Source: an uncultured Clostridium sp. (lineage in GTDB: Bacteria; Bacillota; Clostridia; TANB77; CAG-508). From it: a DNA stretch of 64,000 nucleotides. The notes beneath the pieces were generated by a model, which saw only the letters and a list, made by a program, of their open reading frames with translations, made no database searches and was not told the origin of the DNA. Positions 478-35,025 of this stretch are shown here, one piece after another. Position numbers and translations under genes: made by a program. The stretch is taken from positions 21,326 through 85,325 of the forward strand of contig URYN01000008.1 of assembly GCA_900552135.1 (NCBI GenBank), in the 5' to 3' direction. Every line of letters starts with the position of its first letter. Position 1 is the first letter of the stretch.

Positions 478-1026
478 ATGGACAATAGAAAAAGATGCAA
501 GTGGTGCAATATGAAGAATCCACTATACATAAAATATCATGATGAGGAATGGTGTAGACCAAACTTTGATGAAAAATATTTATACGAGATGCTTACATTA
601 GAATCTTTTCAGGCTGGGCTTTCTTGGGAGTGTGTACTAAATAAAAGACAAGCTTTTGAGATGGCATATGATAACTTTAATATAGATAAAGTATGCCAAT
701 ATGATGATGAAAAGGTTCTAGAACTTCAACAAAACAAAGACATAATCAGAAATAAACTAAAGATAAAAGCAAGTATAAACAATTCTAAAATATTTAAGGA
801 TATTCAAAAAGAATTTGGCTCATTCGACAATTACTTAAAGACTTTTACAGATGGAAAAACATACTATGAAATAGATCAGACAACATCTCCACTCTCTGAT
901 GCTATTTCAAAAGACCTACAAAAAAGAGGAATGAAATTTGTAGGTTCAACAATAATATATTCGTATTTACAGGCAATAGGAGTAATTATATCACATGACA
1001 AAGATTGCTTCCTTTTCGCCCAATAG
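478..1026 (+). CDS. tag: DNA-3-methyladenine glycosylase I
   Basis: Cys-rich N-terminus (CKWCN), YHDEEWCRP and FQAGLSWECVL motifs typical of the Tag family; RBS-like AGGAG upstream. Confidence 0.8.
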   Translation: MDNRKRCKWCNMKNPLYIKYHDEEWCRPNFDEKYLYEMLTLESFQAGLSWECVLNKRQAFEMAYDNFNIDKVCQYDDEKVLELQQNKDIIRNKLKIKASINNSKIFKDIQKEFGSFDNYLKTFTDGKTYYEIDQTTSPLSDAISKDLQKRGMKFVGSTIIYSYLQAIGVIISHDKDCFLFAQ

Positions 1027-1046
1027 GGACGCCCCTTTTTGGGCGA
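1016..1046 (+). repeat. 31-nt GC-rich palindromic hairpin element, copy 1 (TCGCCCAATAGGGACGCCCCTTTTTGGGCGA) followed by T-run; acts as terminator of tag
   Basis: 8-bp stem TCGCCCAA/TTGGGCGA, 15-nt loop, then GCTCTTTTTTAT; same element recurs at 1134, 6996, 7464. Confidence 0.8.
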
Positions 1047-1133
1047 GCTCTTTTTTATATTGGTTTCTGATTGTTTGAATGTAAAAAAACTTAATTAATT
1101 ATTTTATTATTGATAATATAATTTCTAATTTTT

Positions 1134-1164
1134 TCGCCCAAAAAGGGGCGTCCCTATTGGGCGA
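1134..1164 (-). repeat. 31-nt GC-rich palindromic hairpin element, copy 2 (inverted relative to copy 1)
   Basis: Exact reverse complement of copy 1 (TCGCCCAAAAAGGGGCGTCCCTATTGGGCGA) 87 nt downstream across AT-rich spacer. Confidence 0.8.
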
Positions 1165-1250
1165 TTAGTATTATAATATATTGAAAAATATTTAAATATT
1201 TGATAATATGTGGTTATAAAAATTCTAATGAAGAAAGAGAGAGGTTTATT

Positions 1251-2201
1251 ATGGATGAAAAAAATAATAAGATTGAAAATTTAAATGGCTTTAAGGACTT
1301 AAGAATAGTTGATAATTTTTATCAAACTTCAAGTTTCTTTCCAATGCCAACCACAGAAATTGGAACATTAAGTGAAAGTGGAAAGACAAATTTGGGTTCA
1401 TATTCACTTTGCTTTCCTTATTACATTGCAGGAAAAGACTATTATGCAATGGTTCTTTGTTGTAGAAATAGTTCAAACACAGCAAAAAACATATTAAGAA
1501 CAGGAAAGTGCTCAATAAATTTTATAACAGATAATAGAAAATATTTTAAAGAAGCGGTTAGATTAGGCTATCCAGGAGAAACAACTGATGAAAAAATGAA
1601 AGATACAATATTCACACTTGTAGACGGAAAAAGAGCAAGAGAAAATTCTGAAGAAGAATTTCCAAAGATTGTACAAGAAGCTTTTCAAGTATTTGAATGT
1701 ACTTGGGTAAGAGAATTAGACAATGCTCGAGACGATAAAGTTCAAGAAGAATACCTTCCACCATACCATCAATTTAACGGAATCACAAGTAAATTTGGTG
1801 CTCATTTTATATTAAAAATAGATCATATTCTTATGAAACCAAAGTACTACGATGCTATAATAAATGGCGTTAATGCTTGGAACTTCCCAAGCGTTCCAGT
1901 TGATTATGGCTACCGTGACAATAAGAACTTTTGGTATACAAAATTTAAAAGACCAATTGCTGAACCAATTCCTGCAAGCAAAGGAATCAGTTTAGATACA
2001 GTAAAATATGCAGCATCAAGAATAGACCCGGATGTTAAATTTACTGATGAAGCGTGTGCAAAACTTGTAAAAGTACCAAGAGTATTTTTAAGTACAGTAT
2101 TAAAAGGATGCGTATCATGGGCAAAAGAAAACAATGTAAAATTAATCACAGAAAAGGAAATGGAAATAATTCAAGACAAGCGTAACAAAGAAAAGAAATA
2201 A
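1251..2201 (+). CDS. Hypothetical protein, N-terminal flavin-reductase-like (FMN-binding split-barrel) domain plus unknown C-terminal domain
   Basis: ORF 1200-2201; start moved to ATG 1251 after RBS AGAGAGAGG; weak family resemblance only. Confidence 0.4.
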   Translation: MDEKNNKIENLNGFKDLRIVDNFYQTSSFFPMPTTEIGTLSESGKTNLGSYSLCFPYYIAGKDYYAMVLCCRNSSNTAKNILRTGKCSINFITDNRKYFKEAVRLGYPGETTDEKMKDTIFTLVDGKRARENSEEEFPKIVQEAFQVFECTWVRELDNARDDKVQEEYLPPYHQFNGITSKFGAHFILKIDHILMKPKYYDAIINGVNAWNFPSVPVDYGYRDNKNFWYTKFKRPIAEPIPASKGISLDTVKYAASRIDPDVKFTDEACAKLVKVPRVFLSTVLKGCVSWAKENNVKLITEKEMEIIQDKRNKEKK

Positions 2202-2223
2202 TATATTTATCAAGGAGACTAAT

Positions 2224-2931
2224 GTGGAAAGAATAGACAAAATAATATCTTCACAGACAAATTATTCTAGAAAAGATGTCAAAAAGCTCATATCACAAAA
2301 GAAGATAAGAGTAAATGATGAGATTGTAAAAAGACCGGAACAGAAAGTGAATGAACAACAAGATGCAATATATATAGATGGAAATAAATTAGATATGAAG
2401 AAACACATATATTTAGTATTAAACAAGCCACAGGGGTATATATCAGCAACTGAAGATAGAACGGCAAAAACCGTATTGGACTTAGTACCAGAGCAATATA
2501 TAAGAAAAGGTTTGTTTCCAGCAGGAAGATTAGACAAAGACACAACTGGAATGATGATTATAACAGATGATGGAGAATTTGCACATAACATATTAGCTCC
2601 AAGAAAACACATAGAAAAAACATACAGAGTACAAATAGATATAGACATAACAGAAGAGATGAAAGAAAAGTTCAAACAAGGAATCGTTCTAAAAGACCAT
2701 GTATGTTGCCCTGCAACGATTGTAGTAGAAAACAAAAATACAGCATTAATAACAATAACAGAAGGAAAATATCATCAAATTAAAAGAATGTTTGGATGCT
2801 TTGGAGCAAAAGTAGTAAGATTGCATAGAATCTCAATGGGAGGCTTACAACTACCAAGTGATTTAATAGAAGGAAAGTGTAGAGAGCTAACAGCAGAAGA
2901 ACTAGAAAAAGTATGTAGAAGAGACAAGTAA
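2224..2931 (+). CDS. rsuA: rRNA pseudouridine synthase, RsuA/RluB family (S4 domain + catalytic RLDKDTTG motif)
   Basis: GTG start after AGGAG; GRLDKDTTGMMIITDDGE catalytic-Asp motif. Confidence 0.75.
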   Translation: MERIDKIISSQTNYSRKDVKKLISQKKIRVNDEIVKRPEQKVNEQQDAIYIDGNKLDMKKHIYLVLNKPQGYISATEDRTAKTVLDLVPEQYIRKGLFPAGRLDKDTTGMMIITDDGEFAHNILAPRKHIEKTYRVQIDIDITEEMKEKFKQGIVLKDHVCCPATIVVENKNTALITITEGKYHQIKRMFGCFGAKVVRLHRISMGGLQLPSDLIEGKCRELTAEELEKVCRRDK

Positions 2932-3044
2932 GAGACATAAAGATTGATGAAAATTTACACATTGAAATAAATCCAAGGCCGCAATATATAGGAGAACTCC
3001 TAAAAGAGGCTGTGAAAGCAGAAATGGAGAGATAGATAGCAAAA

Positions 3045-3686
3045 ATGAATATATTAAAACCTCAAAAGATGTTGTCTGATAATTTAAGAACTATTGAAGA
3101 TTTACAAAACGAATTAATGGAAAATGATGAATTAGAAAATGTTAAAGTAAAAGATTATTCAAATAACAATTTAGAAGTCTTTGATGTTACATGCAATAAG
3201 GCAGTGTTTAATAATGCCTCTATAATAAATAGTAGGTTCGAGAAAACATTTTTAACAGATGTAGAATTTACAAACTGTAATTTTTCAAACACTACATTTG
3301 ACAATTGTAGCTTCATAAGATGTGAATTTAATAATTGTAAGTTAACAGGATGTAACTTTATAGAAAATGTTTTATTTGATATAGGATTTATAGATTCGAA
3401 CATGAGCTATGCCAATATATCACTGAGCAATTTAAGAGGAATAATTTTTAATAATACATCAATCAGAAGCGGAAGTTTGCAGGAAAATAAAGTAAAGAAT
3501 ATAAATTTTAAAGAAGCGGACCTAAGAGGAATACAATTTTTTAAAACAAGCTTAAATGGAATTGACTTATCAAATAGTAATATAGATCAAATTGCAGTTT
3601 CACTTGAAGATATAAAAGGTGCAAAAATAAACCAAATGCAAGCAATAGATTTAATATCTTTATTGGGAGTAAAGGTAGTTGAATAA
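3045..3686 (+). CDS. Pentapeptide-repeat protein
   Basis: Long run of A(D/N)LxX-type pentapeptide repeats (CNFSNTTFDNCSFIRCEFNNCKLTGCNF...). Confidence 0.75.
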   Translation: MNILKPQKMLSDNLRTIEDLQNELMENDELENVKVKDYSNNNLEVFDVTCNKAVFNNASIINSRFEKTFLTDVEFTNCNFSNTTFDNCSFIRCEFNNCKLTGCNFIENVLFDIGFIDSNMSYANISLSNLRGIIFNNTSIRSGSLQENKVKNINFKEADLRGIQFFKTSLNGIDLSNSNIDQIAVSLEDIKGAKINQMQAIDLISLLGVKVVE

Positions 3687-3784
3687 TAAATGCATAATTG
3701 TTTGAAAAGAATTAAATATTTGCAACTAGCATTTTCTTCGGTGAAAATTTTTTGAAAAAATCTGTAAAATAATTAAAAATTTTA

Positions 3785-3814
3785 ATTGACTTTTTTTCTT
3801 TCTAAGTGGTATAA
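3785..3814 (+). promoter_or_regulatory. Sigma-A-like promoter (TTGACT-18-TGgTATAAT, extended -10) for the MATE fusion gene
   Basis: Seen directly in sequence upstream of RBS AAGGGGGAGG. Confidence 0.4.
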
Positions 3815-3911
3815 TAGGCAAGCTAACAAAAAAGAGAGTAAGGGTTGTGAGAAGAATTTAGTGTTCCTCTCCAACCTGATATTTATGTCTTTTTATCAAA
3901 AAGGGGGAGGA

Positions 3912-5930
3912 ATGAAAGAAAAAATGGAGCAAGAAAATATACTTGGAAAAGAAAAAATAGGTAAATTAATATTAAAATTTTCTATTCCTTGCATTGTTTC
4001 AATGTTGGTAAACTCATTATATAACATAGTAGACCAAATATTCATTGGACAAGGAGTAGGACCGCTAGGGAATGGTGCTACAAATGTAGTATTCCCACTA
4101 GTAATGATAGGCTTAGCATTTTCTTTAATGTTTGGAGATGGTGCATCAGCATATTTAAGCTTAAAACTTGGAGAAAAGAAGAAAAAAGAAGCAGAAATAG
4201 GAATTGGTAACGGAATATTATTATCTGCAATTGTATCAATATTTTTCTGTATAATCACATTAATCTTTTTACCACAATTTTTAACAATATTTGGCTGTAC
4301 TGAAAAATTAAGAGAATTCGCAATGATTTATGGTAAGATTATTGCAATTGGTCTTCCATTCTCTATGATTGGAACTACTTTGAATTCAATTATTAGAGCA
4401 GATGGAAATCCTAAATTTGCTATGATGAGCATGGTAGCAGGCGCAATTTTAAATACAATATTAGATCCAATATTCATATTTAAATTCGACATGGGAGTAG
4501 CTGGTGCAGCTATTGCTACTGTAATAAGCCAAGTGCTTACATTTGTATTAAACGTTGCATATATTAAGAAATTTAAATCTATACAATTATCAAAAGAAAG
4601 CTTTAAATTAAAAGCTGGAGTATGCAAGAAAGTTTCAATGCTTGGAATAAGTAGTTTTATTACTCAAATGAGTATTGTATGTGTTATGACTGCCGAAAAT
4701 AATTTACTTGGAAAATATGGTGCAAATAGCGAATACGGAGCCGAAACTCCAATTACGGTTCTTGGAATTGTAATGAAGATAAATCAAATATTAAATAGCA
4801 TAATAATAGGTATTGCTGCAGGAAGTCAACCTATAATTGGATATAATTATGGTGCTAAGAAATATGACAGAGTAAAGAAAACACTGAAGATTGTTCTAAG
4901 TTCAAGTTTAGTAATAAGTACAATAGCATTCATATTGTTCCAAACAATACCAGATAAATTAATCTTAATATTTGGTAATGGTGATGTAAAATACATGGAG
5001 TTTGCATGTTTAGCATTTAGAACATATTTATTACTTTGCATCTGTAATGGTGTTCAAATACCATCAGGAATTTTCTTTCAAGCAATCGGAAAAAGCACAA
5101 AGAGTGCTATATTATCACTTTCAAGACAAATTGTTATATTAATTCCTGCTATGATAATATTGAGTGGAATCTATGGAATAATGGGTGTATTAAGTGCTGG
5201 ACCGGTAGCTGATGGATTAGCGTTTGTATTGGCTGTTATACTTCTAATAAAAGAAACAAGAGGCATGAAGGCTGATGGAGTAGAAACAGAAAAAGCAGAA
5301 AGAAAAGAAATACCAGAAACTGCAGTAGCTAACAACGGAATTGTAATCACAATTGCAAGAGAATATGGTTCTGGCGGAAGATATATTGGAAAATTAGTTG
5401 CAGAAAGATTAGGAATTAAACTATACGATAAAAACATAATAGAAAAAATGTCAGAAGAAACAGGATTGGCAAAAGAATATATAAAAGACAACGAACAAAA
5501 AAGAACTGTTTTCGACAATTTCAATAATGGCTATTATGCTGGTCTGAATAACTCTGACGAACTATTTATACAAGAATCAAACTTAATAAAAGATTTAGCT
5601 GATAGGGAATCTTGTGTGATAGTTGGAAGATGTGCAGACTTCATATTAAAAGACAAAAAGAATGTTTTGAAAATATTTGTAAGTAGTAGTATGGAAAATA
5701 AAGTAAAAAGAGCAACAGAATTTTATCATATAGATAAGAAAAATGCAGAAAAAGAGATTACAAGAATAAATAAACTAAGAGCAAATCACTATGAATACTA
5801 TACAGAAAGAGGCTGGGAGACATCATCAAATTATGATATTTGCGTAAACAGCGATTCTATTGGAATCGACAATGTTGTAGACTTAATATGCAGTATAGTA
5901 GAGAAAAGTAAAGAATTTGCGGTTAAATAA
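3912..5930 (+). CDS. MATE-family efflux transporter fused to C-terminal cytidylate-kinase-like (Cytidylate_kin2) domain
   Basis: ORF 3786-5930; start at ATG 3912 after AAGGGGGAGG; ~12 TM MATE core then TIAREYGSGGRYIGKLVAERLGIKLYDK P-loop-like kinase-like domain in one continuous frame. Confidence 0.75.
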   Translation: MKEKMEQENILGKEKIGKLILKFSIPCIVSMLVNSLYNIVDQIFIGQGVGPLGNGATNVVFPLVMIGLAFSLMFGDGASAYLSLKLGEKKKKEAEIGIGNGILLSAIVSIFFCIITLIFLPQFLTIFGCTEKLREFAMIYGKIIAIGLPFSMIGTTLNSIIRADGNPKFAMMSMVAGAILNTILDPIFIFKFDMGVAGAAIATVISQVLTFVLNVAYIKKFKSIQLSKESFKLKAGVCKKVSMLGISSFITQMSIVCVMTAENNLLGKYGANSEYGAETPITVLGIVMKINQILNSIIIGIAAGSQPIIGYNYGAKKYDRVKKTLKIVLSSSLVISTIAFILFQTIPDKLILIFGNGDVKYMEFACLAFRTYLLLCICNGVQIPSGIFFQAIGKSTKSAILSLSRQIVILIPAMIILSGIYGIMGVLSAGPVADGLAFVLAVILLIKETRGMKADGVETEKAERKEIPETAVANNGIVITIAREYGSGGRYIGKLVAERLGIKLYDKNIIEKMSEETGLAKEYIKDNEQKRTVFDNFNNGYYAGLNNSDELFIQESNLIKDLADRESCVIVGRCADFILKDKKNVLKIFVSSSMENKVKRATEFYHIDKKNAEKEITRINKLRANHYEYYTERGWETSSNYDICVNSDSIGIDNVVDLICSIVEKSKEFAVK

Positions 5931-5975
5931 GGTTTAAAATATAAGCTTTTGGATAACATATTATGGGTGATTAGT

Positions 5976-6974
5976 ATGTTTAAGCCAAAGGCTTTATATT
6001 GTGAAAATAATATTGAAAATTATGTGCTTGGAAGAGAGCTATTAGAAAAATATGCTGATGTTCCAAGAGTGATAATTGACAATCATAATAATATTGAAGA
6101 AATGAGAAAGAAGCAAAATAAAGATTTTGCGGATATGAAACGAAATTTGATAATAGGAGTGAGGAAGACGCATAAGTTTGTTCCAAATCACAAGACATCA
6201 GATTTTCTAGTTCCATATACATCCTCTGGTTGTACAGCAATGTGTATGTACTGTTACCTTGTCTGCAATTACAACAAGTGTGCGTATTTGAGGCTATTTG
6301 TGAATAGAGAAGAGATGCTAGATAAAATTATAAGAACAGCACAAAATGCAGAAAAAGATTTAACCTTTGAAATTGGAAGTAATAGTGATTTAGTTTTAGA
6401 AAATACCATTACAAACAATTTAGTTTGGACGATTGAAAACTTTGCAAATACTTCGAAGGGACATTTAACTTTTCCTACCAAGTTTGATATGGTAGATGAT
6501 ATTCTGACTTTAAAACATAATGGAAAAGTTACTGTTAGAATGAGTGTGAATCCCGAAGAAATTATTAATAAGGTTGAATTTGGTACGTCAAGACTAAAAA
6601 ATAGAGTCCAGGCTATTAATAAATTAGCCGATGCCGACTATCCTATTGGAATTTTGATAGCACCAGTAATTTTAGTAGAAAATTGGAAAGAACTATACTC
6701 GAATTTGATAAAATATCTGTATGAAAATTTGAGCGAAAAGGCTAAGAAACATGCCTTTTTCGAAATTATTTTTATGACATACAGTTTTGTTCATAGAGCA
6801 ATAAATACAGAGGTATTTCCAAATGCCATAGATTTATATAATCCAGAATTGATGAGAGGCCGTGGAAGAGGAAAATATATGTATAAAGACTATATTCGTG
6901 AAGAAGGAGAAAAATTCTTACGAGAAGAAATGCAGAAATATTTTCCGCATAATCAGATTGAATATGTGGTATAA
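5976..6974 (+). CDS. splB: Spore photoproduct lyase (radical SAM)
   Basis: Radical-SAM cysteine cluster SGCTAMCMYCYL; overall SplB-like length; start ATG 5976 after GGTGA. Confidence 0.75.
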   Translation: MFKPKALYCENNIENYVLGRELLEKYADVPRVIIDNHNNIEEMRKKQNKDFADMKRNLIIGVRKTHKFVPNHKTSDFLVPYTSSGCTAMCMYCYLVCNYNKCAYLRLFVNREEMLDKIIRTAQNAEKDLTFEIGSNSDLVLENTITNNLVWTIENFANTSKGHLTFPTKFDMVDDILTLKHNGKVTVRMSVNPEEIINKVEFGTSRLKNRVQAINKLADADYPIGILIAPVILVENWKELYSNLIKYLYENLSEKAKKHAFFEIIFMTYSFVHRAINTEVFPNAIDLYNPELMRGRGRGKYMYKDYIREEGEKFLREEMQKYFPHNQIEYVV

Positions 6975-6995
6975 AGTTCAATTTTTGAACAGCCT

Positions 6996-7026
6996 TCGCC
7001 CATTGGGGACGTCCCTTTTTGGGCGA
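6996..7026 (+). repeat. 31-nt GC-rich palindromic hairpin element, copy 3 (TCGCCCATTGGGGACGTCCCTTTTTGGGCGA)
   Basis: Immediately after splB stop; near-identical to copies 1, 2 and 4. Confidence 0.8.
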
Positions 7027-7050
7027 AAAAGAGTACAAAATTTCCTTCGT

Positions 7051-7164
7051 CCACAAATTGTACAAATTGGAAATAGTACAATTTTTCCCCCGGAACTAAA
7101 TTGTACTGTCCTCGAATTGCAAATTGTAAAAAGTCCAAAATCTCCCCCGGAACCAAATTGTACT
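7051..7164 (+). repeat. Cluster of GTACAATTT/AAATTGTAC hairpin and 24-nt direct repeats (TTTCCCCCGGAACTAAATTGTACT at 7084-7107 and TCTCCCCCGGAACCAAATTGTACT at 7141-7164)
   Basis: Palindrome TTGTACAA 7057-7064; hairpin GTACAATTT-N13-AAATTGTAC 7076-7106; related element at 62837-62899. Confidence 0.7.
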
Positions 7165-7172
7165 AAAAGAGC

Positions 7173-7201
7173 TTGACATAAATATATTTAATTTGTATAA
7201 T
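7173..7201 (+). promoter_or_regulatory. Sigma-A consensus promoter (TTGACA-17-TATAAT) driving the SAM riboswitch/metK leader
   Basis: Perfect -35 and -10 hexamers with 17-nt spacer. Confidence 0.55.
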
Positions 7202-7218
7202 AGGTTTTGTAATATATA

Positions 7219-7326
7219 TATTATCAAGAGTGGACGAGAGAATCGGCTTTATGACTCCACAGCAACCTATTGGGTTAGGTGCTAATACCGACAAAGTTAC
7301 GGAAAGTACTTTGAATGATGATTTCT
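7219..7326 (+). ncRNA. SAM-I (S-box) riboswitch aptamer upstream of metK
   Basis: UUAUCAAGAG...GCAACC...GGUGCUAAUACC...GAAUGAUGA blocks match S-box P1/P2/P3 consensus in order; followed by intrinsic terminator; gene context (metK) is the canonical target. Confidence 0.65.
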
Positions 7327-7336
7327 AAGAATCGTT

Positions 7337-7370
7337 AAACTTTGTACCTGCGCAAGTACAAAGTTTTTTA
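7337..7370 (+). terminator. Riboswitch expression-platform intrinsic terminator (AAACTTTGTAC-loop-GTACAAAGTTTTTTT)
   Basis: 11-bp perfect stem plus U-run. Confidence 0.7.
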
Positions 7371-7463
7371 GCTTTTATAGAAATTAAAATTTATTTTAAT
7401 TAAATCAACTTGAGGGGAAAGAGACATTTGATAAGAAATGTATCTAATTGGGTTTTCAGTATA

Positions 7464-7494
7464 TCGCCCCAAAAGGGGCGTCCCCAATGGGCGA
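7464..7494 (-). repeat. 31-nt GC-rich palindromic hairpin element, copy 4, lying between riboswitch terminator and metK RBS
   Basis: TCGCCCCAAAAGGGGCGTCCCCAATGGGCGA; reverse complement matches copy 3 at 28/31. Confidence 0.8.
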
Positions 7495-7511: not shown

Positions 7512-8654
7512 ATGAAAAGATTATTTACATCAGAGAGTGTTACAGGAGGACATCCGGATAAGCTATGTGATTATATATCGGATAGTATTCTGGATAGTTA
7601 TTTGGCAAAAGATAAGAATGCTAGAGTTGCTTGCGAAACCGTTGCGGGCAAAGGAGAAATTTATATAACTGGAGAAATTACATCGACTGCAAATGTTGAT
7701 ATTGAGCAGGTTGTGAGAGACACCATAAAAGAGGTTGGTTATGCAGATAGTGGGTACGATATTGATTACAGAACTTGCAAAATATACATAAGCTTATCTA
7801 AACAATCTCCTGATATTGCACAAGGAGTTGATAAATCGCTTGAAGATAAAGAAGGACAAGATGTTGAATCTGAAGGAGCCGGTGATCAAGGCTTAATGTT
7901 TGGTTATGCTTGTGATGAAACAGAGGAGTTAATGCCTCTTCCAATTTTGCTTGCACACAAGCTTTCTAAGAGATTGACTGAAGTTAGAAAAGAAAAAATA
8001 ATAGATTATTTAAGACCAGATGGTAAGACACAGGTTACAGTTGAATATGATGGAGACAAGCCTGTAAGAGTGGATACTATTGTTGTTTCTACACAACATC
8101 TACCTGATGTTGATATGGATATTTTAAAAAATGACATAATTAAAAAAGTTATAAAACCAACAGTTCCAGCCAATTTATTAGATGAAAACACAAAATATTT
8201 TATTAATCCAACAGGAAGATTTGTAATAGGTGGACCTCTTGGGGACAGTGGTCTTACAGGTAGAAAAATAATAGTTGATACTTATGGCGGAGCTGCAAGA
8301 CATGGTGGAGGAGCTTTTTCAGGAAAAGATCCTACAAAGGTTGACCGTTCGGCTTCTTATATGGCAAGACATATTGCAAAAAATATTGTTGCAAATGGTT
8401 ATGCAAAGAGATGCGAAATACAAATAGCATACAGCATTGGTGTGGCAAAACCAGTATCAATATATGTAAATACTTATGGAACCAATACAATTCCAGAAGA
8501 AGAGATTATAGAAAAAATAAATAATACATTTGATTTAACACCAAGAGGAATAATAAATTATCTTGATTTACAAAGGCCAATTTATAGACAAACAACAAAC
8601 TACGGTCATTTTGGAAAAAAAGACCTACCTTGGGAGAAAATTATAAAATTTTAA
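7512..8654 (+). CDS. metK: S-adenosylmethionine synthetase
   Basis: [21 protein letters not shown]-terminus, [16 protein letters not shown] and other MetK signature blocks; RBS GGAGGAG. Confidence 0.95.
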
Positions 8655-8756: not shown

Positions 8757-9218
8757 ATGATTTCAAAAGATGAGAAAAAATTCTTGGAAGAAACTAGGGA
8801 CGATCTTAAGCGGATTCTTAGACGCATCGAATGCACTCTAGCAGTTGATGCCACTAGCAGCTATGACGCAATGGAGGACCAAAGCAAAAGCGAAGAATAT
8901 ATTGTTACGCAATACCTAATGAAACTTGGAGTACCTACATCTGTAACAGGATTTGGGTATATAAAGAGTGGAGTTCTCTATCTCCTCAAAGAAGAGAACA
9001 GGAGAGTACTTGTAACAAGGGAACTCTATCCGAAAATTGCAGAAGAATACAATTCATCAGTATCAAAAGTGGAACGTGCAATTCGCACAGCAATTGGAAA
9101 GGCAGAGAGGAGATGTACTAAAGAGTTACAAATAATCTTGTATGATCGTGAAGAGCTTAGGCTTACTAACATGGAATTCATAACACTGGTTACAGAAAAG
9201 ATTAGATTGGGATTATAA
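8757..9218 (+). CDS. Spo0A C-terminal (DNA-binding) domain-only protein, no receiver domain
   Basis: ELYPKIAEEYNSSVSKVERAIRTAI and NMEFITLVTEKIRL match the Spo0A_C effector domain recognition helix region; 153 aa, too short for a receiver domain. Confidence 0.7.
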   Translation: MISKDEKKFLEETRDDLKRILRRIECTLAVDATSSYDAMEDQSKSEEYIVTQYLMKLGVPTSVTGFGYIKSGVLYLLKEENRRVLVTRELYPKIAEEYNSSVSKVERAIRTAIGKAERRCTKELQIILYDREELRLTNMEFITLVTEKIRLGL

Positions 9219-15143: not shown

Positions 15144-15173
15144 ATAAAATTGGTTAATACAATATATTATTTT

Positions 15174-15208
15174 AGAGAACTGCTTGAAATATAGTAGTTC
15201 TCTTTAGT
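15174..15208 (+). repeat. Terminator-like hairpin with TATAAT directly downstream (module copy 1)
   Basis: 19 nt identical to 18005-18023 (CTTGAAATATAGTAGTTCT). Confidence 0.65.
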
Positions 15209-15238
15209 ATAATTAAAATATCAAAAATAATTAAAAAA

Positions 15239-27706: not shown

Positions 27707-28651
27707 ATGATAAAGGTAAGTGTTATAGTTCCAATTTATAATGTGGAAAAGCAACTGGCAAAATGTTTAGATTCATTACTAAATCAAACTTTGAAGGATA
27801 TACAAATAATACTTGTAAATGATGGCTCAGAGGATTCGAGTGCAGAAATTGCAAAAAAATATGTTGTAAAAGATCCAGATAGAGTCTTGTATTTTGAAAA
27901 AGCAAATGGTGGATTATCAGATGCAAGGAATTATGGATTGAAATATGCAACTGGAGAGTACATATCATTTGTAGATTCAGATGATTATATAACAGAAAAT
28001 TTATACACTGATTTGCTACCTTATATGGAACAAAAATATGACATGATTAAATTTAAAATTGCAAAAGTTGATGAACAAGGTAATGTGCTTGAGAAAAATT
28101 ATACACCATTGTTTGAAGAAAAAAGTGGTGAAGAGGCATTCGACATTTTATATAAAGCAGATGTAATGACAGAAGTTGCATGGGGGTATTTGTATAAAAG
28201 AGATTTCTTTAGAAGAAATAAATTTGAGTTTACTAAAAGAAAATATCATGAAGATTTTGGATTAATTCCTCTTATACTATTGAAGGCTGATAAAGTTGCA
28301 AGTGTAGATGTATTTGGTTATAACTATGTGCAAACTCAAAAAAGCATCACGAGAGGAAATTCAGAAATTACATATAAAAGAGCTTTAGATTTATTGTATT
28401 TCTATGATGAAATGGTAAAAAAAATTAAAGAATATAAGATTTCAGAAAAATCTAAGGAGAATATAAAAATATATTATACTAATTGTATAATATTAGAAGT
28501 GAATAATCTAAAGGGAAAAGAGCAAAAACAATTCATAAAAGAAATAAGAAAGAGAAAACTTGCAAATAACATAAAGGCAAGAGATGTAAAACAATTTATA
28601 AAGAAAATACTTTTGAAAATAAATATAAAACTATATTTAAAATTGAGATAG
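27707..28651 (+). CDS. Glycosyltransferase family 2 (tandem paralog 1)
   Basis: KVSVIVPIYNVEKQLAKCLDSLLNQTLKDIQIILVNDGSEDSS...VDSDDY. Confidence 0.85.
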   Translation: MIKVSVIVPIYNVEKQLAKCLDSLLNQTLKDIQIILVNDGSEDSSAEIAKKYVVKDPDRVLYFEKANGGLSDARNYGLKYATGEYISFVDSDDYITENLYTDLLPYMEQKYDMIKFKIAKVDEQGNVLEKNYTPLFEEKSGEEAFDILYKADVMTEVAWGYLYKRDFFRRNKFEFTKRKYHEDFGLIPLILLKADKVASVDVFGYNYVQTQKSITRGNSEITYKRALDLLYFYDEMVKKIKEYKISEKSKENIKIYYTNCIILEVNNLKGKEQKQFIKEIRKRKLANNIKARDVKQFIKKILLKINIKLYLKLR

Positions 28652-28670
28652 ATTTAGGAAAGGGATAAAA

Positions 28671-29627
28671 ATGCCAAAAGTAAGTGTAATTGTTCCAATT
28701 TATAATGTAGAAAAATATCTAGAAAAGTGCATTAATTCACTGCTTAGTCAAACTTTAGAAGATATTCAAATAATTCTTGTAAATGATGGCTCTAAAGATA
28801 ATTCTGGAAACATAGCAAAAGAATACGAAAAAAATAACAAAAACAGAGTAATCTATGTAGAAAAAGAAAATGGTGGACTATCAGATGCAAGAAACTATGG
28901 ACTAAAATATGCAACTGGTGATTTTATTGCCTTTTTAGATTCAGATGATTACATAGAAAAAAATGCTTATGAAGAAATGTATAATAAGGCAATAGAAGAA
29001 AATGCAGATTATGTTGAATGTGATTTTATATGGGAATTTCCTAATAAAATTAGGGTGGACAAGCAGTATCCATACAAAAATAAAAAAGAGATGCTTAGTT
29101 TTGTTAGAGTGGTTGCCTGGAATAAGCTGATTAAAAGACAATTAATCACAGATAATAACTTAGAGTTTCCAAAAGGATTAAGATATGAAGATGTAGAATT
29201 TACTTATAAGCTTATTCCTTTTGTAAATAAATTTGCTTATGTTGACAAGCCATTCATTCATTATGTACAAAGAGAAGGCTCTATTGCAAATGTTCAAAAT
29301 GAAAGAACGGCAGAGATATTTACTATATTGGACAATGTTATCGAATTTTATAAAAAGAACAATATTTATGAAAAGTATAGAGATGAGCTCGAATATAATT
29401 ATGCAAGATATTTACTTTGCAGTTCTTTGAAAAGAATGTGCAAAATAAAGGATAAGTCAATTAGAGAAAAATTACTAACAGAGAACTGGGAAAGATTGAA
29501 TTCGAATTTTCCAAACTGGAAAAAGAATGTAATTTTAAAAACTGTAAATACTGGTAAAAATAAATATATGAGAACAATTAATAAAACAACATATAAGATA
29601 TTTACATCAATATTTGTTTTAATATAA
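28671..29627 (+). CDS. Glycosyltransferase family 2 (tandem paralog 2)
   Basis: KVSVIVPIYNVEKYLEKCINSLLSQTLEDIQIILVNDGSKDNS...LDSDDY; upstream AGGAAAGGGATAA shared with paralog 1. Confidence 0.85.
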   Translation: MPKVSVIVPIYNVEKYLEKCINSLLSQTLEDIQIILVNDGSKDNSGNIAKEYEKNNKNRVIYVEKENGGLSDARNYGLKYATGDFIAFLDSDDYIEKNAYEEMYNKAIEENADYVECDFIWEFPNKIRVDKQYPYKNKKEMLSFVRVVAWNKLIKRQLITDNNLEFPKGLRYEDVEFTYKLIPFVNKFAYVDKPFIHYVQREGSIANVQNERTAEIFTILDNVIEFYKKNNIYEKYRDELEYNYARYLLCSSLKRMCKIKDKSIREKLLTENWERLNSNFPNWKKNVILKTVNTGKNKYMRTINKTTYKIFTSIFVLI

Positions 29628-32250: not shown

Positions 32251-35025
32251 ATGAAGAGAAAAATTTTAAATATTATAAAAATAGTAGTATTGCTTAGCGT
32301 TTTTTTGGGAACTCTTAACATCGGCAATACTACTTTTGCGACTGATGCAAATCAAACTCTTGAAGATGGAGTATATACCATAAAATCTGCTCTAAACGAG
32401 AAGTTTATGTTTGATATTTACAACAGTTTAAAAACAAACGATGCTAAGGTGGAATTATGGACAGGTGGAGGAACAAATAACCAAAAATTTACCATTAAGT
32501 ATATTGGAAATGGATGTTATACAATATCACCTGTACATTCTGGAAAATTTATTGATGTTGCACATAACTCAAAAGAGCCTGGAACCCAAGTTCTACAATA
32601 TGAATATCATGGTGGAGATAACCAAAAGTGGATTATAAAAGATGCTGGAAATGGTTATTTTAACATAATTTCTAAGAGCAATGGATTATATTTAGATATA
32701 CCTCATTCTGACGCTCATGATGGTTCATTAGTGCAGGTATGGACTAGTAATGGATGTAATAATCAAAAATTTAAATTTGTAAAAGAGGGAGAAGAAACAC
32801 CCACAGGAACTAAAACAATAAATGATGGAATTTATCAAATACAAACTGCTGAAGATACATCAAAGGTTGTTGATATAGGTGGAAGCTCTACTCAAGATGG
32901 CACAAATATTGGGGTATGGGAAAACTCATCTACAGCCAACCAGAAATTTAACATAAAATATAGAAATGACGGTTATTATACAATATCTGCAATGCATTCT
33001 GGAAAATATATTGATGTTGCAGGAAGCTCAAAACAAAATGGTGCAACTGTTGACCAATGGGAGTACCATGGTGGAAATAACCAACAGTGGGTAATTAGAG
33101 ACGCTGGAAACGGATATTATTACATAATTTCAAAATGTAATGGCTTGTATTTAACAGTTGATAACGGAAGGATAGTAACGTCAAAATTAAATAATTCTTC
33201 AAGCCAAAAGTTTAAGCTTACTGTTCCAACTGCAATGAAAGGTACAAAAACATTAGAAGATGGAACTTATACTATTGCTTCGGTAGCAAATACAAGGCTT
33301 GTAATAGATATTCCTCATAGCTCTAAAGATAATGGTGAAAAGATTGAACTATGGAGAAATGGCAAAACTGCAAATCAAAAATTTAATATAAAATATGTTG
33401 GTGATGGATATTACACAATAACTGCAACACATGCAAATACATCAATAGAACTTGCCAATGGAACTACAATAATTGGAACTAAGATTACTCAATATGCTAA
33501 CAATGGCTCTGATGCACAAAAATGGATTATAAAAGAAGCCGGAAATGGAGAATATTACATAATTTCTAAAAATAGTGAATTATATATGACTGTTGAGAAT
33601 GAAGAAGTTAAAGAAGGTGCTAATTTAACAATTCAAAATTATTCAGGAAGAGTTGCACAAAAATTTACAATAACTGATTCTAAGGTTGTTGTTGACATAG
33701 ACGATAACAAATATCCTGGATATAAAGCAGCACTTGAAAAATTATTAGCAGCACATCCAAACTGGAATGTAAAATTCCTATATACAGGATTGAAATTTGA
33801 TAATGCAGTTGCTGGTGAAGCAGAAGTACATGGAAGAAACTTAGTGGAAACATCAAATAGTGGAGAATGGGTATGTTCGACTTGTGGAACACAACTATAT
33901 GATAGTGGCTGGTACTGTGCTTCTGAAAAAGCTATAGCATATTACATGGATCCAAGAAACTTTTTAGATGAAGTAAATATATTCCAATTCCAAGATGTAA
34001 ATGAATATATGGACGAGGCTTGTACATTAGACGGAATAAAGGCTAAAGTAAAAGATACATATTTACAAAATTATGCCGAAGATATAGAAAAGGCATGTAG
34101 AAACACAAATGTAAATCCATACTACATAATTGCAAGATTAATTCAAGAACAGGGGAAAAATGGAACGCAAATCGGAAGAGGCATGGACGGTGGAGATGGA
34201 AAAACATATTACAACCCATTCAACATCAGTGCAAACGGAACTGGTTGGAATCAAATTTATGCAAATGCCTTAGCTAGAGCAAAAAGAGAAGGTTGGGACA
34301 CAATGCAGAAAGCCTTAGAAGGTGGAATTGGTTTCTGCAAAGAAAACTGGCTAGAGAATTACCAAAATACACTATACCAAAACAGATTTGATATAGATTC
34401 AACAAATGGAACGGCTTTATATACTCACCAATATATGCAAAACTTAATGGGAGCATATAGTGAAGCACAAACATTACAAAGCATGTACAAAAATACTAGT
34501 AAGCTAGATTCAAGCTTTACTTTCATAATTCCATTATATGAGCAAATGGATAAAACGGTTACACCATTACCATCTGCTAGCTCTGAAACATATCCTATGA
34601 ATGTTGAAACAACAGGAACAAATGTACTTTTCAGATCTGGACCAAGTACTTCTTCAAGTGTAATTAGAACAATTTCAAACAAAGGAACAGTATTTTTATC
34701 AATAGAAAGAGGAATTAATTCGGACTGGCAAAAGGTAGTTGCATCAGATGGTACTATAGGATATATATCAGGAAAATATCTAAAACAAATTGAAGATGTT
34801 AAAACCTGCAATTATAAGGCTAATGTAAAAACTAATGATGGATATGGTTGTAATGTGAGGTTAGGACCAAGTACAGATGTTTCTAAGCTTACAGCACTAG
34901 CTGAAAATGCAGAGGTAACAGTAATAGATAATTCAACTTATAAAAATATAAATGGCTATGATTGGTATAGAATTATAATTTCAGATGGAAGGCAAGCATT
35001 TATACCAAGTATATATTTAAAGTAA
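32251..35025 (+). CDS. Secreted cell-wall hydrolase: signal peptide, 3 ricin-B (beta-trefoil) lectin domains, GH73-like glucosaminidase domain, 2 C-terminal SH3b domains
   Basis: NQKF/NQKW QxW repeats; ARLIQEQG...YYNPFNISA glucosaminidase-like block; bacterial SH3 repeats at C-terminus. Confidence 0.65.
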   Translation: MKRKILNIIKIVVLLSVFLGTLNIGNTTFATDANQTLEDGVYTIKSALNEKFMFDIYNSLKTNDAKVELWTGGGTNNQKFTIKYIGNGCYTISPVHSGKFIDVAHNSKEPGTQVLQYEYHGGDNQKWIIKDAGNGYFNIISKSNGLYLDIPHSDAHDGSLVQVWTSNGCNNQKFKFVKEGEETPTGTKTINDGIYQIQTAEDTSKVVDIGGSSTQDGTNIGVWENSSTANQKFNIKYRNDGYYTISAMHSGKYIDVAGSSKQNGATVDQWEYHGGNNQQWVIRDAGNGYYYIISKCNGLYLTVDNGRIVTSKLNNSSSQKFKLTVPTAMKGTKTLEDGTYTIASVANTRLVIDIPHSSKDNGEKIELWRNGKTANQKFNIKYVGDGYYTITATHANTSIELANGTTIIGTKITQYANNGSDAQKWIIKEAGNGEYYIISKNSELYMTVENEEVKEGANLTIQNYSGRVAQKFTITDSKVVVDIDDNKYPGYKAALEKLLAAHPNWNVKFLYTGLKFDNAVAGEAEVHGRNLVETSNSGEWVCSTCGTQLYDSGWYCASEKAIAYYMDPRNFLDEVNIFQFQDVNEYMDEACTLDGIKAKVKDTYLQNYAEDIEKACRNTNVNPYYIIARLIQEQGKNGTQIGRGMDGGDGKTYYNPFNISANGTGWNQIYANALARAKREGWDTMQKALEGGIGFCKENWLENYQNTLYQNRFDIDSTNGTALYTHQYMQNLMGAYSEAQTLQSMYKNTSKLDSSFTFIIPLYEQMDKTVTPLPSASSETYPMNVETTGTNVLFRSGPSTSSSVIRTISNKGTVFLSIERGINSDWQKVVASDGTIGYISGKYLKQIEDVKTCNYKANVKTNDGYGCNVRLGPSTDVSKLTALAENAEVTVIDNSTYKNINGYDWYRIIISDGRQAFIPSIYLK

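Follow-up and report, generated by a model that had tools for sequence, protein, structure and literature searches.

The GC-rich hairpins described here form a REP-like family which, in related genomes, is very probably the DNA partner of an HUH-Y1 enzyme of the RAYT/TIRYT type that appears to be single-copy and vertically inherited. Because dispersed copies also flank an apparently single-copy RAYT gene in these related genomes, we regard the system as a low-GC Gram-positive counterpart of proteobacterial REP/RAYT. The window, that is, the whole 64-kb stretch of DNA that was analysed, contains four copies of TCGCCCAWTRGGGACGYCCCTTTTKGGGCGA:

1016..1046, + strand: REP-like hairpin copy 1, TCGCCCAATAGGGACGCCCCTTTTTGGGCGA, the left member of an inverted doublet
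1134..1164, - strand: REP-like hairpin copy 2, the exact reverse complement of copy 1
6996..7026, + strand: REP-like hairpin copy 3, with the loop variant ATTG..GACGT
7464..7494, - strand: REP-like hairpin copy 4, in the metK leader with its head toward metK

The preliminary description had placed the copies at these same coordinates and on these strands. The expectation by chance for the four-copy count is 0, and matches were obtained in 0 of 100 dinucleotide-preserving shuffles. The consensus first proposed is matched exactly by three of the four copies and with one mismatch by the fourth, and the conserved unit extends about 2 nt beyond those 31 nt on either side (TT...AA). As reverse complements, copies 1 and 2 agree at 100% of positions; compared with these two, copies 3 and 4 show 3 differences in 31 positions. 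Both pairs (1/2 and 3/4) have +/- polarity. All four had been thought strictly intergenic, which is wrong for copy 1: it covers the final 11 nt of tag (ORF 478-1026) and supplies the codons F-A-Q and the TAG stop. Copy 2 lies 87 nt downstream of copy 1 and 86 nt upstream of the ATG of the next gene (1251). Copy 3 starts 21 nt past the stop of the spore photoproduct lyase gene (6974) with its head toward that ORF, and copy 4 is located between the SAM-riboswitch terminator and the metK ribosome-binding site GGAGGAG, 6 nt before the latter.

In all window copies the fold consists of an outer stem, TCGCCCA(A)/(T)TGGGCGA (7-9 bp), and an inner 4-bp GGGG/CCCC stem, with folding energies of -17 to -20 kcal/mol (z = -2.1 to -4.8). 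The element is 31-35 nt long and has an asymmetric 17-nt loop, inside which sits the conserved motif GGGACG. An 8-9 bp GC stem had been described earlier; the outer stem contains A-T pairs and so is not pure GC. At position 7, copy 4 has a C in the window and an A, which restores the pair, in two other strains. In single-stranded DNA, the doublet 1016-1164 could fold as one 31-bp hairpin (-47.8 kcal/mol, z = -12).

Besides these copies, the window holds members of a second hairpin family, and the stretch upstream of metK holds regulatory features that are outside the repeat family and are given as context:

62837..62867, + strand: second-family hairpin, gtacaatttGGGGACGGAGGAAaaattgtac, with the same architecture and loop motif and another stem
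7074..7106, - strand: degenerate second-family relative between copies 3 and 4, with stem GTACAATTT and loop AGTTCCGGGGGAA on the - strand
7132..7163, - strand: second degenerate GTACAATT-type unit, within a 57-nt tandem duplication
7173-7201, + strand: perfect sigma-70 promoter (context)
7218-7324, + strand: SAM-I riboswitch (context)
7337-7366, + strand: terminator of the SAM-I riboswitch (context)

The second-family hairpin begins 6 nt past the stop of ORF 61940-62830 and is followed at about 62871-62900 by a degenerate partial copy. The 57-nt tandem duplication is present in the window and in locus L192, and the unit is single in L193 and L194. Promoter, riboswitch and terminator (7173..7366) are all bounded by copies 3 and 4. 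The inverted pair 6996-7026 / 7464-7494 surrounds the perfect promoter and the SAM riboswitch in a 437-nt segment, as would be expected if it formed the arms of an invertible promoter switch conferring phase variation on metK. However, the enclosed segment has the same orientation in all four contigs of the species, there is no recombinase gene nearby, metK is a housekeeping gene, and the +/- polarity is general to the family at many unrelated intergenic regions. We therefore consider a promoter switch extremely improbable and read the pair as two members of the dispersed REP-like family.

The preliminary description had proposed a search for the consensus beyond the window. A genome scan recovered the element from at least 15 species-level genomes, each with tens of copies; these genomes have low G+C and nearly all are labelled uncultured Clostridia. 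Among the matches listed, the fetched loci from 15 assemblies contain 161 copies, and the counts per genome are lower bounds, reaching at least 27, at least 25 and at least 24 in single MAGs. The element was not found on viral contigs. Among the matches listed, 53 of the 161 copies are identical to the consensus, and a crude calling of ORFs places 154 of the 161 outside long ones. The flanks show no conservation past about 3 nt on either side, only an AT-rich composition. The copies follow gene boundaries in an oriented manner. Their gene contexts were tandem in 106 cases, convergent in 17 and divergent in 4, and singletons account for 115 of the 161 copies; those co-oriented with the genes lie a median of 5 nt past the upstream stop, and those in the opposite orientation a median of 17 nt ahead of the downstream start (all among the matches listed). 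Adjacent pairs less than 200 nt apart were +/- in 18 of 20 cases and -/+ in 0 of 20 (among the matches listed), with spacers of unrelated AT-rich DNA of 17-156 nt.

In related genomes the element is physically associated with a RAYT gene. At loci L048 and L077, the gene for a 241-aa HUH/Y1 protein lies between + ... - copies of the element, and a RAYT gene with inverted element copies on both sides was seen at L048, L077, L106-L111 and L195-L197. There is no RAYT gene within the 64-kb window, and none was linked to the window's own species. The 241-aa protein matches Pfam Y1_Tnp (E = 4e-14) and scores 74.3 bits against the NCBIfam REP-associated tyrosine transposase model, just below its cut-off of 80. 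The top PDB match of the family profile is 4er8 (E. coli TnpA-REP). An AlphaFold2 model (pLDDT 87) likewise has 4er8_A as its best fold match (E = 4.5e-6, TM 0.73), ranking above the IS608 and ISDra2 TnpA proteins. The HUH motif H59-x-H61 and the class-2 'Y---NP' motif (Y119-IHN-NP) are invariant in the family, and YIHNNP and YKYSS are conserved in the homologues, which are 241-260 aa long. In the model, residues 192-240 form four C-terminal helices, an HTH-like domain whose matches to HTH_23, HTH_11 and Sigma70_r4 were all sub-threshold. The genes lie in the order RNase J - RAYT - gltX at 100, 92, 55 and 45% identity, with DUF951 following gltX at 55% and 45%. The family is essentially absent from plasmids, and no tnpB accompanies the RAYT gene. 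We assign the enzyme to the RAYT/TIRYT-type HUH-Y1 proteins, TnpA-Y1 class 2, and probably to subclass 2.1.

The fixed +/- polarity of doublets, the folding of the 1016-1164 doublet into one long hairpin and the position of the RAYT gene itself between a +/- pair could also be explained if the elements were MITEs derived from a classical DDE insertion sequence, the inverted copies of a doublet being the terminal inverted repeats of one mobile unit. Against this, doublet interiors of 17 to 156 nt are unrelated in sequence, singletons are the majority (115 of 161 copies among the matches listed), no direct repeat surrounds the copies, whose flanks are merely AT-rich, and the sole associated enzyme is an HUH/Y1 protein and not a DDE transposase. 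A MITE origin is thus highly improbable. The family had first been called REP/MITE-like; the REP part is upheld by the dispersed copies and by the inverted flanks of the RAYT gene, while the MITE part falls, with neither a target-site duplication nor a DDE-type terminal inverted repeat. A look for target-site duplications had been suggested, and the flank profile is free of any duplication.

The stem of the dispersed hairpin changes along with the RAYT lineage. At 54-65% identity of the RAYT homologues, the TCGCCCA stem is retained in the flanking hairpins, and next to a 45%-identity homologue the flanking stem is TCAACCA/TGGTTGA, a compensated change. Around metagenomic homologues at 27-50% identity there are many other stems with the common loop GGGGACG(G/T), and these contigs carry extra dispersed copies of that lineage's own hairpin. 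The motif of the flanking repeats is GGGGACGC/GGGGACGG, with GGGGACAC and GGGTCAGG in some homologues. A covariation count made on alignment A6 is circular, pairing having been the criterion by which the rows were chosen; in a non-circular fold test, only 13 of 26 RAYT-flanking inverted repeats reached z < -2.

A comparison of orthologous regions, which had also been proposed, revealed sites with and without a copy. Between species, presence or absence of the element at orthologous sites is clean, and exact in-situ orientation flips were observed between genomes with 95-97% identical flanks. In the window species, the four copies are all fixed with hardly any variation and thus give no sign of ongoing mobility.

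Since such hairpins lie at gene ends, they could be mainly Rho-independent terminators or mRNA 3'-end stabilisers that are similar through selection, the transposase-like neighbour being incidental. Copies do lie at a median of 5-9 nt past stop codons, T-runs occur on both sides in 15 of 17 convergent-pair copies, and copy 1 has TTTTTT four nt past the stem and was listed by a terminator scan. In tandem contexts, however, a T-run follows only 28 of 71 co-oriented copies (39%) and 8 of 35 opposite-oriented copies (23%). In the window only copy 1 clearly qualifies; neither copy 3 nor copy 4 resembles a terminator, and the latter lies within the metK leader, past the real riboswitch terminator. 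At one orthologous site, the element is directly 3' of a native terminator hairpin that is complete with a T-run, and this terminator remains in the species without the element. Moreover, independent terminators would not share one 31-nt sequence in 15 species, nor a common loop motif with lineage-specific stems beside RAYT genes. The earlier reading of an element family rather than independent terminators is supported by the occurrence of the element in at least 15 species-level genomes, and just a minority of copies resemble intrinsic terminators. We consider this explanation very unlikely, and given that a T-run follows only 39% of co-oriented tandem-context copies, terminator function is at most a side role of a REP-like element.

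The very high conservation across species (53 of 161 copies identical to the consensus among the matches listed), the fixation of the copies in the window species and the C-terminal helical, HTH-like domain of the RAYT family would also fit sites bound by a regulator or nucleoid protein of the host, or DNA-uptake sequences, kept by selection for binding and not spread by transposition. Yet tag, spore photoproduct lyase, metK, tRNA synthetases and the other neighbouring genes have no common function, close relatives show gains, losses and flips of copies, and the stem sequence follows the RAYT lineage. Uptake sequences are known in numbers far above tens of copies per genome, which counts against that version. 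Selection for binding is accordingly a very unlikely explanation compared with a REP-like family partnered by a RAYT enzyme.

We infer that the RAYT protein may catalyse mobilisation of the element. Where DNA is single-stranded, as at the replication fork, each copy would fold into a stem-loop, and recognition by the enzyme would involve both the stem and the asymmetric, conserved motif of the loop, GGGGACG(N)..TTTT. By cutting and rejoining DNA it could seed new copies at gene boundaries and occasionally remove or invert existing ones. Settled GC-rich hairpins would then be transcribed within mRNA 3' ends or leaders, where they may affect the RNA, some of them probably acting as terminators or as barriers to exonucleases.

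The closest published kinds are TIRYT/TIRtron and REP/RAYT. The classical REP/REPIN-RAYT systems, or REPtrons, are reportedly those of Enterobacteria and Pseudomonas, as told by Nunvar 2010, Bertels & Rainey 2011 and Ton-Hoang 2012, with 4er8 as the structure. Like a classical REP, the Clostridia element is a short GC-rich extragenic palindrome that is dispersed and often forms inverted pairs. As in REPtrons, an HUH/Y1 gene, here apparently single-copy and vertically inherited (in the same slot at 100-45% identity), lies between inverted copies, and by profile and fold the protein is closest to E. coli TnpA-REP. In contrast to classical REPs, the element has no 5' GT[AG]G foot: the sequence preceding the stem is just T/A-rich, and the motif lies inside the loop. 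Its count per genome, as a lower bound, is in the tens and not in the hundreds, and its host is a low-GC Gram-positive clade. The REPIN of Bertels & Rainey has two inverted REPs that replicate as one unit around a short conserved spacer; the doublets here have unrelated spacers of 17 to 156 nt and so do not form a conserved REPIN unit.

With IS200/IS605 elements (IS608, ISDra2), the system shares the HUH/Y1 fold and, by analogy, may share the recognition of subterminal DNA hairpins on single-stranded DNA. The Clostridia RAYT gene, however, appears neither multicopy nor IS-like and keeps one syntenic slot. We rejected membership in IS200/IS605, as the NCBIfam IS200 score reaches only 25.5 bits where the cut-off is 55, the hairpins on the two sides are inverted rather than direct and tnpB is missing. 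MITE membership was rejected on the flank profile without duplication and the unrelated doublet interiors.

CGTC-tagged REPs have a stem of 8-9 bp, a loop of 4-5 nt and, at one end of the stem, CGTC as an unpaired tag; they have no associated transposase (Di Nocera 2013). The Clostridia element has CGTC on its reverse strand (GGGGCGTCCC), but its motif lies within the 17-nt loop and a RAYT is associated. In TIRtrons, a RAYT-like gene (TIRYT) is accompanied by inverted repeats without GTAG that share GGGGWSAS, and some TIRs are self-complementary and form moderately abundant dispersed families, also as dimers (Di Nocera 2013). Here, too, a RAYT-like Y1 gene lies between inverted repeats that lack GTAG and carry a G-rich motif, although this motif agrees with GGGGWSAS at only 7 of 8 positions. 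The probable equivalent of TIRYTs in Quentin et al. 2018 (PMC6006769) is TnpA-Y1 subclass 2.1, which is characterised by a long protein, a C-terminal HTH-type domain (Bac_DnaA_C, HTH_23 or HTH_28), 'Y---NP' and a Ser motif after the Tyr. The Clostridia protein resembles these in its length (about 240-260 aa) and in its C-terminal helical, HTH-like extension. For subclass 2.1, REP-like sequences were not found (PMC6006769), whereas most Clostridia flanking repeats form true hairpins that carry the motif in their loop, have compensated stems and also occur as dispersed copies. Clostridia are named by Quentin et al. only for the IS200-type subclass 1.1 (PMC6006769); Firmicutes are not mentioned in Di Nocera 2013 or PMC6006769, and neither includes such a member from Clostridia or these repeats. 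The fixed slot RNase J - RAYT - gltX and the rule of orientation at gene boundaries do not appear in Di Nocera 2013 or PMC6006769.

All four copies of the 31-nt hairpin (the element) were recovered at exactly the positions given in the preliminary description, whose identification of the neighbouring genes as tag, spore photoproduct lyase and metK also held. The features of this region are as follows.

478-1026: tag
1016-1046, + strand: element copy 1
1134-1164, - strand: element copy 2
5949-6974: spore photoproduct lyase gene
6996-7026, + strand: element copy 3
7218-7324: SAM-I riboswitch
7337-7366: terminator of the SAM-I riboswitch
7464-7494, - strand: element copy 4
7512-8654: metK

None of 100 dinucleotide-preserving shuffles of the window matched the element. 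Copy 2 is the perfect reverse complement of copy 1, and copies 3 and 4 each depart from these two at three positions. In each copy a 7-9 bp outer stem, TCGCCCA(A)/(T)TGGGCGA, encloses an asymmetric interior of 13-17 nt with a 4-bp GGGG/CCCC mini-stem, and the folding energies range from -17 to -20 kcal/mol. Both pairs in the window have +/- polarity, and copies 1 and 2 are able to pair into a single 31-bp hairpin in single-stranded DNA. The copies had been described as strictly intergenic, which does not apply to copy 1, as it supplies the final three codons of tag together with its TAG stop. Copy 4 lies within the metK leader, 3' of the riboswitch terminator and 6 nt ahead of the ribosome-binding site. 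An unfiltered search of the window with a covariance model (R1), under which copy 4 scored below threshold, matched copies 1-3 and, marginally, 62839-62865, and revealed no further members. Searching Rfam at a relaxed threshold with 1013-1168 returned plant miRNA-precursor models alone, all far under their cut-offs; because two close inverted copies (a doublet) can form a 31-bp long hairpin, these matches are regarded as an artefact.

The preliminary description had named a search for the consensus outside the window, and this revealed that the element is dispersed, with tens of copies per genome in at least 15 assemblies. Scanning one genome per species for the exact pattern gave at least 105 loci; 6 of the 105 listed were GC-rich chance matches with unrelated loops. 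The remaining loci are from at least 15 assemblies of 26-34% G+C, nearly all labelled uncultured Clostridia and including Clostridium sp. CAG:245, CAG:780, HGM13641, HGM13643, UMGS1435 and Hadza and Brazilian MAGs. When mismatches were allowed, at least 161 copies were found, with at least 27, at least 25 and at least 24 copies in three of the genomes. The consensus is (T)TTCGCCCA[A/T][T/G/A][A/G]GGGACG[C/T]CC[C/T]TTTTTGGGCGAA(A), outward of which there is no conservation. The species of the window is distinct from all carriers in the scan, with about 72-74% nucleotide identity across shared genes.

At two loci from other assemblies, L048 (HGM13641) and L077, an ORF of 241 aa lies between two copies ~890 nt apart, the first + and the second -. 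The protein matched Pfam Y1_Tnp (E = 4e-14), and its top NCBIfam model was the REP-associated tyrosine transposase (RAYT) at 74.3 bits (cut-off 80), with IS200 at just 25.5 bits. A single-sequence search against PDB sequences gave no match. Using a profile built from 29 homologues, the best solved-structure match was E. coli TnpA-REP (4er8). For the AlphaFold2 model (pLDDT 87), too, the best-scoring fold was that of 4er8_A, a RAYT in complex with a REP hairpin (E = 4.5e-6, TM 0.73), which ranked over all IS608 and ISDra2 transposases. Conserved in the family are the HUH motif and the class-2 'Y---NP' motif (YIHNNP) followed by YKYSS; the C-terminal 50 residues comprise four helices, for which all HTH matches were sub-threshold. 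These several lines of evidence, from sequence comparison and a predicted fold, place the 241-aa protein in the REP-associated tyrosine transposase group.

The RAYT gene occupies a slot between RNase J on one side and a glutamyl-tRNA-synthetase-type gene on the other, and homologues at 55% and 45% identity are found in the same slot. The protein database contains more than 1,100 members of this family. Across L106-L111, L112-L133 and L195-L197 the arrangement around the RAYT gene is conserved: in most of these loci the upstream hairpin is about 100-125 nt before the RAYT start codon, the distance being just 33 nt in L109-L111, and the downstream hairpin lies 0-9 nt past the stop codon or overlaps it. 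The element pattern had no match in viral contigs, and a tblastn search of RAYT against plasmids gave 18 weak matches only, the family being nearly absent there; neither result indicates a phage or plasmid origin. The Clostridia-type element was also seen in assemblies of about 28-31% G+C that are labelled Bacteroidaceae (CAVFFR; L059, L077 and L089) and Melainabacteria (CAKUZI; L062). L077 carries the RNase J - RAYT - gltX locus as in HGM13641, with 92% protein identity. Either the taxonomy given for these assemblies is wrong or their bins are contaminated, one of which is probable.

The hairpins were found to change with the lineage of the enzyme. The hairpins on either side of RAYT homologues at 54-65% identity keep the TCGCCCA stem, one of them with the loop GGGGACGGGGTA. 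The 45% homologue is flanked by TTCAACCAAAGGGGACGGGCCTTTTTGGTTGAA, in which GCCC is replaced by AACC and GGGC by GGTT with the loop unchanged. We examined 45 RAYT-homologue loci, 42 of them metagenomic (27-50% identity). Most have flanking inverted repeats with the same loop motif and other stems, such as tgtcaagGGGACGGTTCTcttgaca, tgccaaaaGGGACGGGGAAttttggca and agcaagtGGGGACGGTtcttgct, and further copies of the flanking repeat are often present elsewhere on the same contig. The flanking repeats were picked purely as upstream/downstream inverted matches, folding not being demanded; 13 of 26 fold as DNA hairpins at z < -2, which is a lower bound because the local alignment clipped some repeats. 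A pair count on one alignment (A6) showed double changes at all 8 of 8 stem positions. This covariation is formally strong but circular, since the rows were selected for pairing, and was set aside.

By crude ORF calling, the neighbouring genes are tandem for 106 copies, convergent for 17 and divergent for 4. Seven copies are within called ORFs, at least four of these at doubtful ORF starts or contig ends. Singletons co-oriented with the gene lie a median of 5 nt past the upstream stop, and opposite-oriented ones a median of 17 nt ahead of the downstream start. The TCGCCCAATAGGGACG side, or 'head', of a copy is thus turned towards the closest ORF. Outside the window there are at least six loci where the upstream gene takes its stop from the TAG within the element. 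Among 20 adjacent pairs less than 200 nt apart, 18 are +/- and none is -/+; the spacers are AT-rich, 17-156 nt long and mutually unrelated in sequence. In tandem contexts, 39% of co-oriented copies and 23% of opposite-oriented ones have a T-run after the hairpin. The defining T-tract is missing in most copies, and in the window copy 1 alone clearly qualifies. In convergent contexts, 15 of the 17 copies have T-runs on both sides. From these counts, some copies probably act as transcription terminators, especially where the neighbouring genes converge. REPs of E. coli protect mRNA ends against exonucleases, and by analogy it is plausible that the copies described here do so too.

Comparison of orthologous sites between species, keeping only alignment-checked cases, revealed both presence/absence and flip variants. 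A copy is present in L095 and absent from L068, present in L061 and L088 and absent from L040, present in L020 and L036 and absent from L068, and present in L038 and L054 and absent from L069. At one such site the element is directly 3' of a native terminator hairpin and T-run, and the terminator is kept in the element-free species. The empty sites are too diverged for a target-site duplication or fixed target sequence to be derived. Flips were observed between L029 652-682 and L062 938-968 (flanks 95-97% identical), between L020 492-522 and L036 1641-1671, and between L006 5758-5788 and L082, L083 and L086. In all three comparisons the 17-nt interior is exactly reverse-complemented, the stems are the same and the flanks are mostly 89-97% identical. 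The flips are recent, occurred in situ and involved either the loop of the hairpin or the entire element; they could have arisen by template switching, by inversion across the stem arms, or by an excision with subsequent re-insertion. Some automatic 'absent' calls were false, as at L083 3648-3681, where there is a diverged copy with an indel, and several automatic 'flip' calls were doublet-versus-singleton mismatches. L016 was discarded as an empty-site comparison for metK, its locus being non-syntenic with dinB upstream and the riboswitch missing.

Within the species of the window, copies 1-4 are fixed. The segment 1001-1260 is identical in five other contigs, and copies 3 and 4 are kept in three others, where one SNP restores a stem pair. 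The idea that 6996-7494 is an invertible promoter was rejected, because all four of four contigs of the species have the same orientation. In strains of this species, a 57-nt unit with a GTACAATT-type hairpin (window 7063-7164) is a tandem duplicate in the window and L192 and single in L193 and L194; compared with the latter two, this is the sole sizeable strain difference 5' of the metK promoter in the window. The metK leader (window about 7409) has an 18-nt tandem duplication, TTGAGGGGAAAGATACCT, in L193 and L194 and none in the window or L192.

The window also contains members of a second hairpin family built on the same plan:

7074-7106 and 7132-7163: degenerate relatives, between copies 3 and 4
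62837-62867: intact hairpin, gtacaatttGGGGACGGAGGAAaaattgtac, 6 nt past a stop codon
about 62871-62900: degenerate copy

This family has the loop motif GGGGACGG in common with the first and differs in its stem, GTACAATTT, which suggests either two cognate enzymes or a single enzyme that reads the loop. Related Clostridia MAGs (L075 and L096, four copies together; L011) carry TGTTTTTGGGGACACTTCTCAAAAACA and TTTGATTAGGGACGTTCCTTAATCAAA, further hairpin types sharing this loop motif, so that one genome holds several stem families. Among other repeats of the window, a 55-nt segment with the hairpin AACTACTTGAAATATAGTAGTT occurs twice, 2.8 kb apart (15165-15219 and 17987-18041), and longer repeats comprise two 294-nt units at 27707-28964 (75% alike) and three 216-nt units at 32479-33588 (66-74% alike). 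Just 5' of the window start, same-species loci (L198-L202, 606-1130) encode a toxin of the ToxN type (type III toxin-antitoxin family). Its gene is immediately followed by that of a methyltransferase, the 3' end of which is in the window at 134-409. A 714-aa ORF (3786-5930) is an unusual fusion of a MatE/polysaccharide-synthesis-type membrane domain and a C-terminal cytidylate-kinase-like domain, and a 153-aa ORF 3' of metK (8757-9218) matches only the C-terminal DNA-binding domain of Spo0A, without the receiver domain.

Collectively, the dispersed family and the RAYT gene flanked by inverted copies in related genomes support the REP-like reading first proposed. The hairpins are very probably REP/TIR repeats associated with a RAYT/TIRYT enzyme, a link seen in related genomes rather than in the species of the window. 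The association, and the co-variation of hairpin and enzyme, suggest that RAYT would mobilise them. The locus is a clear low-GC Gram-positive example of the REP/RAYT type. It combines a compact 31-nt element, a conserved loop motif, lineage-specific stems, a single RAYT slot and natural flip and presence/absence variants, and with these properties together the rule by which this enzyme subclass recognises its sites can be tested directly. The repeats account for GC-rich islands in the AT-rich intergenic DNA of common gut MAGs, and can provide the stop codons of genes such as tag. They are present in mRNA leaders and trailers, for example the metK leader, where they may influence expression. 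They are also a likely cause of contig breaks, as a number of loci stop at a copy or inside one.

Work on REP/RAYT systems has been almost confined to Proteobacteria. Classical REPs are marked by GT[AG]G at the 5' foot, and the RAYTs that go with them fall into subclasses 2.2, 2.4, 2.5, 2.7 and 2.8 (PMC6006769). Di Nocera et al. described RAYT-like 'TIRYT' genes with flanking inverted repeats that share GGGGWSAS, are at times self-complementary and at times form moderately abundant families in dimer arrangement (PMC3733652). Quentin et al. treated TIRYT as equivalent to the TnpA-Y1 subclass 2.1, long proteins with a C-terminal HTH, for which REP-like sequences were not found (PMC6006769). In the literature searched, the term was met only in these two surveys. 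Neither mentions Firmicutes, a Clostridia member of this kind or REP/TIR families there (PMC3733652, PMC6006769); Quentin et al. name Clostridia solely for the IS200-type subclass 1.1 (PMC6006769), and Bertels et al. mention no more than the presence of their RAYT Group 1 in Clostridia as well. We tentatively consider, as a rather doubtful extension, that the GGGGACG-loop hairpins are the missing REP partners of the large subclass 2.1 across many phyla. In this reading the enzyme may recognise the loop motif and not a tag at the 5' foot, with the stem drifting through compensated changes; the system may have been domesticated at a fixed locus beside RNase J in this Clostridia clade; and copies may flip in situ and retain a set polarity at ORF boundaries, a pattern that would suggest host-level setting of mRNA ends rather than pure selfish spread. 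Comparison with both surveys indicates that the element fits the TIRtron/TIRYT kind (RAYT-like genes with flanking inverted repeats lacking GTAG). To this kind it adds a Gram-positive gut clade as host, and it makes the description more precise: the repeat is a hairpin that carries the motif in its loop, stem changes are compensated, the gene keeps one slot and the copies follow a polarity rule.
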